Shown in pieces: positions 7,782-8,236 of a stretch of 14,455 nt of DNA. Both the position numbers and the translations under genes were made by a program. Each line of letters begins with the position of its first letter. Within the stretch, counting starts at the first letter, position 1. Origin of the DNA: a virus (taxonomy: Duplodnaviria; Heunggongvirae; Uroviricota; Caudoviricetes); IMG/VR virus record IMGVR_UViG_2698536576_000009, positions 1-14,455 of that record; one strand, 5' to 3'. The notes beneath the pieces are model-generated. The model was given only the letters and a program-made list of their open reading frames with translations, searched no databases and was not told the DNA's origin.

Positions 7782-7809
7782 TTGCGGGAAAAGGAGAGTT
7801 AAGTAGAAT
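7782..7809 (+). promoter_or_regulatory. candidate promoter of the hok mRNA
   Basis: -35 TTGCGG (7782..7787), 16-nt spacer, -10 TAGAAT (7804..7809); the predicted transcript start GGGTGCTTGAGGC parallels the 5' end of plasmid R1 hok mRNA as I recall it. Confidence 0.45.
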
Positions 7810-7862
7810 TGCAGCGGGTGCTTGAGGCTATCTGTCTCAGGCATGAACACCAAAAGGCAGAT

Positions 7863-7937
7863 AGAGAAAAGCCCCAGTTAACATTACGCGTCCTGCAAGA
7901 CGCTTAACATTAATCTGAGGCCAATTTCATGCTAGAC
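7863..7937 (-). ncRNA. sok: Sok-like antisense RNA (candidate antitoxin of the hok locus)
   Basis: Minus-strand transcript predicted from the promoter at 7944..7972, complementary to the hok leader and the mok-like start at 7929; ends in a stem GCCUCAG...CUGGGGC (one G-U pair) followed by UUUUCUC. Boundaries are approximate. Confidence 0.45.
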
Positions 7938-7943
7938 ACATGT

Positions 7944-7972
7944 AGGTTAGCCTCTTACGTGCCGAAAGGCAA
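7944..7972 (-). promoter_or_regulatory. candidate sok promoter
   Basis: On the minus strand: -35 TTGCCT (7972..7967), 17-nt spacer, -10 TAACCT (7949..7944); same layout as the R1 sok promoter as I recall it. Confidence 0.45.
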
Positions 7973-7985
7973 GGAGAAGCAGGCT

Positions 7986-8141
7986 ATGAAGCAGCAAAAG
8001 GCGATGTTAGTCGCCCTGATCGTCATCTGTTTAACCGTCATAGTGACGGCACTGGTAACGAGGAAAGACCTCTGCGAGGTACGAATCCGAACCGGCCAGA
8101 CGGAGGTCGCTGTCTTCACAGCTTACGAACCTGAGGAGTAA
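7986..8141 (+). CDS. hok: Hok-family type I toxin (51 aa; HokD/RelF-like)
   Basis: Product MKQQKAMLVALIVICLTVIVTALVTRKDLCEVRIRTGQTEVAVFTAYEPEE; AAGGAGAAG RBS; an in-frame upstream ATG at 7929 marks a mok-like leader reading frame. Confidence 0.85.
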   Translation: MKQQKAMLVALIVICLTVIVTALVTRKDLCEVRIRTGQTEVAVFTAYEPEE

Positions 8142-8211
8142 GAGACCTGGCGGGGGAGAAATCTCCCGCCACCTCTGATGTGTCAGGTATCCTCAATGCA
8201 CCCACACTTAA

Positions 8212-8236
8212 CCCGCTTCGGCGGGTTTTTGTTTTT
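8212..8236 (+). terminator. intrinsic terminator of the hok transcript
   Basis: CCCGC-TTCG-GCGGG hairpin followed by TTTTTGTTTTT; preceded by a second hairpin GGCGGGGGAGA/TCTCCCGCC (about 8150..8171), plausibly the hok mRNA 3' fold-back element. Confidence 0.7.

Follow-up and report, generated by a model that had tools for sequence, protein, structure and literature searches.

The closest described relatives of the locus treated here are hok/sok (parB) of plasmid R1, hokW/sokW of the Stx2 phages Sp5 (VT2-Sakai) and 933W, and hokD (relF) of the cryptic Qin prophage in Escherichia coli K-12. The locus occupies positions 7782-8236 of a 14,455-nucleotide (nt) stretch of DNA from a virus of the Caudoviricetes (IMG/VR record IMGVR_UViG_2698536576_000009); this whole stretch is referred to as the window, and all coordinates are those of the window. 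Very probably, a Qin-related lambdoid prophage carries here an intact type I toxin-antitoxin cassette, hok/mok/sok, which belongs to the hokD/hokW lineage.

In Sp5, hokW/sokW functions as a type I system, and HokW is toxic (Takada et al. 2021, PMC8621323). The Sp5 locus does harm only when the sokW promoter is mutated, which abolishes the antitoxin activity, and sokW provided in trans rescues the cells; the antitoxin activity is partly dependent on RNase III and Hfq (PMC8621323). Northern blots showed both RNAs, and after addition of mitomycin C sokW was gone and HokW was found in the inner membrane (PMC8621323). Under these conditions the locus led to earlier lysis and roughly two-fold more phage, and its deletion delayed lysis and halved phage release (PMC8621323). 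The hokD locus of K-12 has lost components by genomic rearrangement (PMC12214031; PMC7232551). For hok/sok of R1, the same rearrangements of the tac (translational activator), fbi (fold-back inhibition), ucb and dcb boxes of the mRNA have been described that were obtained here by folding (PMC9841398).

Identity and architecture of the cassette

The 511-nt locus is 93.5% identical over 91% of its length to the DNA of 933W and Sp5, and mokW, hokW and sokW are annotated in 933W. It is identical (100%) to one RefSeq E. coli chromosome, NZ_LR882057.1, in which the toxin alone is annotated, as hokD. The architecture of the cassette, its alternative folds and the identity of its antisense promoter were established here from the sequence of the window and its predicted folding. 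All elements listed in the original prediction, i.e. the Hok open reading frame (ORF), the mok start, the -10 hexamer of hok, the fold-back, the terminator and the antisense promoter, were found in the sequence where they had been placed, and the claim that the hok/sok locus is complete and its sok promoter intact held on every point tested, this promoter being identical to that of the validated sokW.

A covariance-model search, which had been proposed as a check, yielded a match to Rfam family RF01794 at 7816-7991 on the plus strand (120.7 bits, gathering score 59, E=1.4e-27), which covered model positions 1-157 of 157. The leader of the hok mRNA with its tac stem and target hairpin agrees with this covariance model, and the structure of the model was reproduced by the fold of the 3'-trimmed mRNA. 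On the minus strand no match to RF01794 was obtained, a permissive rescan included. The match lies on the hok-sense strand and therefore supports the locus as such; an antisense RNA is not directly attested by it. RF01794 is named 'sok antitoxin'; in practice it models the leader of the hok mRNA, and its consensus ends at the hok AUG.

The toxin of 51 amino acids (aa) matched PF01848 (HOK_GEF) over profile positions 1-42 of 42 (E=7.2e-24, 83.6 bits at a cut-off of 22). Of 63 distinct homologues, 56 had the mok frame intact with its 70 codons, and the remaining seven have a stop after 19 codons, adjoining the hok start. Translation of hok is presumably coupled to that of mok. A side observation concerns the Tyr47 codon of Hok: UAC lies within a UACG motif (8124-8127, plus strand), which was invariant in all 63 homologues and is found in plasmid loci, too. 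The toxin produced by the locus may thus depend in part on RNA editing, A-to-I at 8125, by which the Tyr47 codon would be read as Cys.

Alternative folds of the hok mRNA

The transcription start of hok at 7816 was derived from position 1 of the RF01794 model. In the minimum-energy fold of the full-length mRNA (7816-8232; z = -8.3), the 5' and 3' ends are closed by a 12-base-pair (bp) tac/fbi helix (7816-7827 with 8191-8203), in which the U at 8197 within fbi forms a one-nucleotide bulge. The Shine-Dalgarno (SD) sequence of mok is paired with AAGCCCC (7869-7875) in this fold. If the last ~45 nt are removed, the mRNA refolds: the 5' end GGGUGCUUGAGG now pairs with AAGCCCC, and the mok SD lies in a hairpin with GCCUC, the loop of which (GCUAGAC) is complementary to the tail of the Sok RNA. 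Between the closed and the open form, the mok SD changes its partner from ucb to dcb. The GC-rich stem-loop in the 3' untranslated region (UTR) at 8149-8172 occurs in both folds and is likely to protect the 3' end of the processed mRNA, as suggested by work on R1 (PMC9841398).

These pairings are conserved among the homologues. In 67 distinct phage-borne sequences tac and ucb were invariant and fbi was nearly so. Pair counts over 63 distinct sequences showed the 12-bp tac/fbi helix paired in every cell, the 7-bp tac/ucb helix invariant and the outer stem GAGGC/GCCUC paired in all 63. The homologues are closely related (95% mean column identity), and the structure tested was derived from the window itself; the pair counts therefore show conservation and a few compensatory pairs, not an independent proof of the structure. 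The -10 hexamer TAGAAT of the hok promoter was kept in 61 of the 67 homologues, and the -35 hexamer is variable.

The predicted Sok antisense RNA and its promoter

The predicted Sok RNA folds into a single-stranded 5' tail of 15 nt and a long hairpin with a GGGGCUUUU end (-28.7 kcal/mol, z = -5.1). Compared with sokW of 933W, 64 of 71 positions are equal; the seven differences comprise six in the 15-nt 5' tail and one loop nucleotide. The promoter segment AGGTTAGCCTCTTACGTGCCGAAAGGCAAGG is identical to that of sokW in the alignment with 933W. When the mutagenic primers of the Sp5 study were mapped onto 933W, the promoter-less construct corresponded to a change of TAACCTA to GAGCCGG on the antisense strand. 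The mutation (TAACCT to GAGCCG) thus hits exactly the -10 hexamer found in the window, and because the Sp5 homologue carries an identical promoter, the expression and toxicity experiments suggested with the original prediction have already been performed there.

Across the 67 homologues, the -10 hexamer of sok is TAACCT in 54 and TAATCT in 13, and the -35 hexamer is TTGCCT in 54 and TTGACC(T) in 13. The 13 sequences with TTGACC / TAATCT possess a stronger-looking sok promoter, and seven of them (L023, L032, L035, L049, L054, L064 and L068) carry a net -1 frameshift, by which mok stops after 19 codons. In five further loci (L004, L011, L042, L070 and L080) the Sok hairpin is ~21 nt shorter and shows compensatory changes at its base. 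The coordinates of all features of the cassette are compiled in Table 1.

Table 1. Features of the hok/mok/sok cassette in the window.
Feature	Position	Strand	Details and basis
hok promoter, putative	7782-7809	+	-35 TTGCGG (7782-7787), 16-nt spacer, -10 TAGAAT (7804-7809)
Full-length hok mRNA, tac box to intrinsic terminator	7816-8236	+	RF01794 match and whole-mRNA fold
tac box, GGGUGCUUGAGG	7816-7827	+	Partner: fbi (full-length fold) or ucb (3'-trimmed fold); invariant in 67/67 distinct homologues
ucb (anti-SD) box, AAGCCCC	7869-7875	+	Partner: mok SD region (full-length fold) or tac (trimmed fold); invariant in 63/63 sequences
mok Shine-Dalgarno sequence, GAGG	7917-7920	+	8 nt upstream of the mok ATG; invariant
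Sok target (sokT) segment and loop	7923-7937	+	CUAG at 7932-7935; complementary to the Sok 5' tail; loop and upper stem in the trimmed fold
mok frame, 70 aa	7929-8141	+	ORF list; ATG at 7929, in frame with hok, common stop codon
dcb box, GCCUC	7950-7954	+	Partner: mok SD (trimmed, open form)
hok toxin gene, 51 aa	7986-8141	+	SD GGAG at 7973-7976
3'-UTR GC-rich stem-loop	8149-8172	+	10-bp stem in both folds; paired in 92% of cells across homologues
fbi box, CCUCAAUGCACCC	8191-8203	+	12 bp with tac; paired in 100% of cells, 63 homologues
Intrinsic terminator of the hok mRNA	8210-8236	+	Terminator scan: 7-bp stem (8210-8227) and T-run; kept in most homologues
Sok antisense RNA (predicted), 71 nt	7937 to 7867	-	Coordinates transferred from annotated sokW of 933W
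sok promoter	7944-7972	-	-35 TTGCCT (7972..7967), 17-nt spacer, -10 TAACCT (7949..7944); predicted start 7 nt downstream, at 7937

Distribution of the locus

The system to which the cassette belongs is known, characterised and very common, and the cassette is an ordinary example of it. Homologues of the 511-nt locus were detected in 4942 of 5426 complete E. coli genomes, with a median of two and a maximum of ten places per genome; in 3825 of the 5426, at least 80% of the query was covered at a single place. Furthermore, 102 phage records matched, 933W included. The full leader was present in 78 of 80 phage contigs sampled from IMG/VR, each encoding a Hok 98-100% identical to that of the window, and the other two begin at the breakpoint known from K-12. 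The full-length module is thus the common state and hokD of K-12 the rearranged exception. The original prediction had implied that an intact pair within a prophage is unusual; this did not stand in view of these frequencies and of the function already demonstrated for hokW/sokW in Sp5. The comparison with K-12 could mislead readers in just this way. The identification of the locus matters little beyond correct annotation; RefSeq marks only the toxin, as 'hokD', without mok or the Sok RNA.

Outside E. coli, a scan of representative genomes (596 Gb) with a 14-nt tac-box sequence gave, among the matches listed, mostly chance hits in unrelated phyla; the real ones among these were Escherichia albertii (95%) and a few partial enterobacterial matches only. 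A locus of Citrobacter braakii (L097, ~7160-7570) showed a hok leader with 92% identity over 97 nt and an fbi region with 85% over 61 nt, and its middle part did not align. The toxin coding region may have been swapped there inside a conserved RNA scaffold.

A hypervariable Sok recognition segment

The segment 7922-7942, which comprises the Sok 5' tail, the target loop and mok codons 2-5, occurred in 12 alleles among the homologues. Its mean column entropy was 0.78 bits in comparison to 0.12 bits in the rest of the locus, and the hairpin presenting the loop was preserved in every allele. Beside this hypervariable segment of 15-20 nt, hardly any variation was seen in the flanking stem, the promoters and the coding sequence. 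The allele of the window (loop GCUAGAC) is a common one and differs from sokW at 6 of the 15 tail positions.

This observation is only mildly new. The pattern is what would be expected if the recognition specificity diversifies among co-resident copies. Tentatively, the Sok alleles might represent orthogonal specificity groups, so that several hok/sok prophages could coexist in one cell without the Sok RNA of one silencing the hok of another; this is conceivable, if somewhat doubtful, and only two same-genome pairs of IMG/VR contigs were present in the sample. If it were so, each prophage would keep its own independent trigger. The hypervariable segment is a possible entry point to the study of cross-talk between co-resident type I toxin-antitoxin modules.

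Putative mode of action and alternative explanations

The best-supported reading is that of a functional cassette, which would work as described for R1 and Sp5. According to the scheme known from these systems, the hok mRNA would start at ~7816 and end at the terminator (8210-8236). As the folding suggests, the full-length mRNA would be locked by the tac/fbi helix, with the mok SD covered by ucb, and would permit neither translation nor binding of Sok. Slow trimming of the 3' end, as in the homologues, would remove fbi, upon which the predicted refolding would form the tac/ucb helix and the mok SD/dcb hairpin that displays the Sok target loop. Meanwhile, the constitutive promoter (TTGCCT / 17 nt / TAACCT) would provide an unstable Sok RNA of ~71 nt, as its homologues do. 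By analogy to these, the tail of Sok would pair with the loop and block translation of mok and hence the coupled translation of hok, and the duplex would be open to RNase III. If Sok is no longer replenished, for example due to prophage induction, shut-off of host transcription or loss of the element, the trimmed mRNA, being stable, would be translated, and the 51-aa Hok peptide would then damage the inner membrane.

Several points weigh against this reading. Transcription, 3' processing, RNase III cleavage and toxicity of the copy in the window are transferred from its homologues. The divergence of the Sok tail could alter the binding kinetics, although Sok, being cis-encoded, still pairs perfectly with its target, and the window Hok has 5 of its 51 residues changed in comparison to HokW, four of them C-terminal. 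Covariation is thin, since just 3-4 pairs change on both sides, largely in one or two lineages. Historically tested chromosomal hok loci were without post-segregational killing (bioRxiv 10.1101/2025.08.07.668861). Finally, both promoters, that of hok and that of sok, stayed below the threshold of a generic sigma-70 scan and are weak matches to the consensus (8 and 7 of 12 positions, respectively), by this measure no better than chance. Consensus strength is therefore unusable as evidence for these promoters, and their credibility as putative promoters rests on homology instead.

That the promoter hexamers individually are no better than random would fit the idea that a short ORF, hairpins and hexamers resembling promoters came together by chance without any real element, an explanation of practically no probability, which is already refuted by the Pfam match (E=7e-24), by fold z values of -5 to -8, by thousands of copies with the same architecture and by the Rfam match (E=1.4e-27), which places the locus as a whole far beyond chance. 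The weak consensus of both promoters would likewise suit a locus that is intact in sequence yet physiologically silent, i.e. a permanently repressed chromosomal relic, and the K-12 loci other than hokB are indeed considered inactivated (PMC7232551, PMC12214031). Such a state is very unlikely for the cassette of the window: decay would bring lesions, as it did in hokD of K-12, whereas here all regulatory elements are intact and are conserved in at least 60 distinct phage-borne copies; the truncated form occurs in just 2 of 80 phage contigs, and expression as well as a phenotype are on record for the near-identical hokW/sokW.

Among the explanations that assume a functional cassette, prophage maintenance or abortive infection could be the main selected role instead of help with lysis after induction. 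R1 hok/sok is the textbook case of post-segregational killing, toxin-antitoxin systems are known to serve in phage defence and in the maintenance of mobile elements, hok genes show an about four-fold enrichment in prophages (bioRxiv 10.1101/2025.08.07.668861), and the annotation of 933W reads 'prophage maintenance'. On the other hand, the same survey saw no enrichment of hok beside defence systems (bioRxiv 10.1101/2025.08.07.668861), and the sole experimental phenotype of the homologue is faster lysis with more phage after treatment with mitomycin C. Maintenance or exclusion as the main role is thus possible, but on the unlikely side. The roles are not mutually exclusive, and both maintenance and phage exclusion are possible functions of the cassette in the window. 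Help with lysis and phage release after induction is the only role demonstrated in this lineage, namely in the homologue of Sp5. By this precedent, the cassette is a likely modulator of the lysis timing of the prophage in the window after induction.

Prophage context

The cassette lies between the replication/nin region and the Q antiterminator gene (10383-10778), and cI/Cro-like, O/P-like, RusA, Q and dicB genes are present in the window. Positions 1-9005 showed 99.86% identity to E. coli NZ_LR882057.1, with complete divergence beyond 9005. The prophage of NZ_LR882057.1 ends near zinT; the window continues with a DUF968 protein, RusA, Q and a toxin cassette. The junction at 9005 is a mosaic junction typical of lambdoid phages.

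Downstream of Q, two overlapping ORFs (12648-13791, plus strand) encode a pertussis-toxin-like AB5 toxin (ArtAB-like), at the position that is occupied by Stx in Stx phages. The A subunit (250 aa) matched Pertussis_S1 (2.3e-17) and the solved E. coli ArtA/EcPltA structure 4Z9C (9e-98), and the B subunit (137 aa) matched Pertussis_S2S3 (1.9e-6). No complete E. coli genome in the collection covered at least 80% of the window segment 10300-14455; the best one covered 43% at 87% identity.

Further RNAs above the Rfam thresholds were DicF (175-226, minus strand, 74.1 bits) and, just downstream of the Q gene, isrK (10819-10895, plus strand, 74.3 bits) and C4 antisense RNA (10923-11007, plus strand, 76.3 bits). 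An apparent second hok copy near DicF was rejected as an artefact: the BLAST subjects had included the 933W locus, a self-BLAST of the window found no such copy, and the stretch 100-820 bears no relation to hok. In the 3' UTR of hok, an isrK-like match (8150-8231, plus strand; 26 bits at a cut-off of 50, E=0.0014 for a search of 621 nt) and an rsmX match (19 bits, sub-threshold) were also rejected; these are probably chance resemblances of hairpin-plus-terminator shapes.

Comparison with known systems

The plasmid locus used for the comparison was an R1-type one from an IncFII plasmid; its Hok and the R1 peptide are 100% identical. The tac and ucb boxes, the SD and ATG of mok, the target loop, the hok SD, the UACG motif near the Hok C-terminus, fbi and the terminator correspond one for one between this locus and the cassette of the window. 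RF01794, which the window matches over the full length of the model, was built on this family. The sok promoter of the IncFII locus (TTGCGC / 17 nt / TATCCT) occupies the same alignment columns as TTGCCT / 17 nt / TAACCT in the window, which bears out the original placement of the antisense promoter as in R1 sok. One compensatory change was seen in the tac/fbi helix, C-G in the R1 type being U-A in the window. In comparison to R1, the Sok hairpin of the window is ~16-20 nt longer, the fbi/tac helix is also longer (12 bp with a bulge), and the replicon is a prophage instead of a plasmid. The Hok protein of R1 is only distantly similar; HokW and R1 Hok share 44% identity (PMC8621323).

The kinship with Qin is evident from the dicF/dicB, ydfA/B and dicC segments, which are common to Qin and the window. 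From 7972 to 10018 the window is colinear with hokD-rem-ydfU of K-12 at 84% identity, and HokD of K-12 differs from Hok of the window at one residue (I9V). The alignment with K-12 begins only at ~7972, the hok SD; upstream of it K-12 has relE/relB, whereas the window has prophage ORFs and no relBE. Because relBE replaces the upstream part, K-12 is without the hok promoter, tac, ucb, the mok start, Sok and the sok promoter. That Qin hokD lacks a functional sok, as originally stated, is thereby confirmed and agrees with the literature (PMC12214031). The arrangement of the K-12 type, with hokD rearranged into a relBEF operon, is not that of the window, which has kept the full leader. The prophage of the window is thus a less decayed relative of Qin with a complete, un-rearranged hok locus.

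There are further differences from 933W: a clear intrinsic terminator follows directly after fbi in the window, where 933W diverges, and the window cassette is situated between the replication/nin genes and Q, whereas the flanks in 933W differ. Like in 933W, all elements occur in the same order and with the same spacing, the regulatory region is colinear, and the hairpin and 3' end of Sok are the same. By its sequence, the locus of the window can be assigned to the hokW/sokW lineage of lambdoid (Stx) phages.

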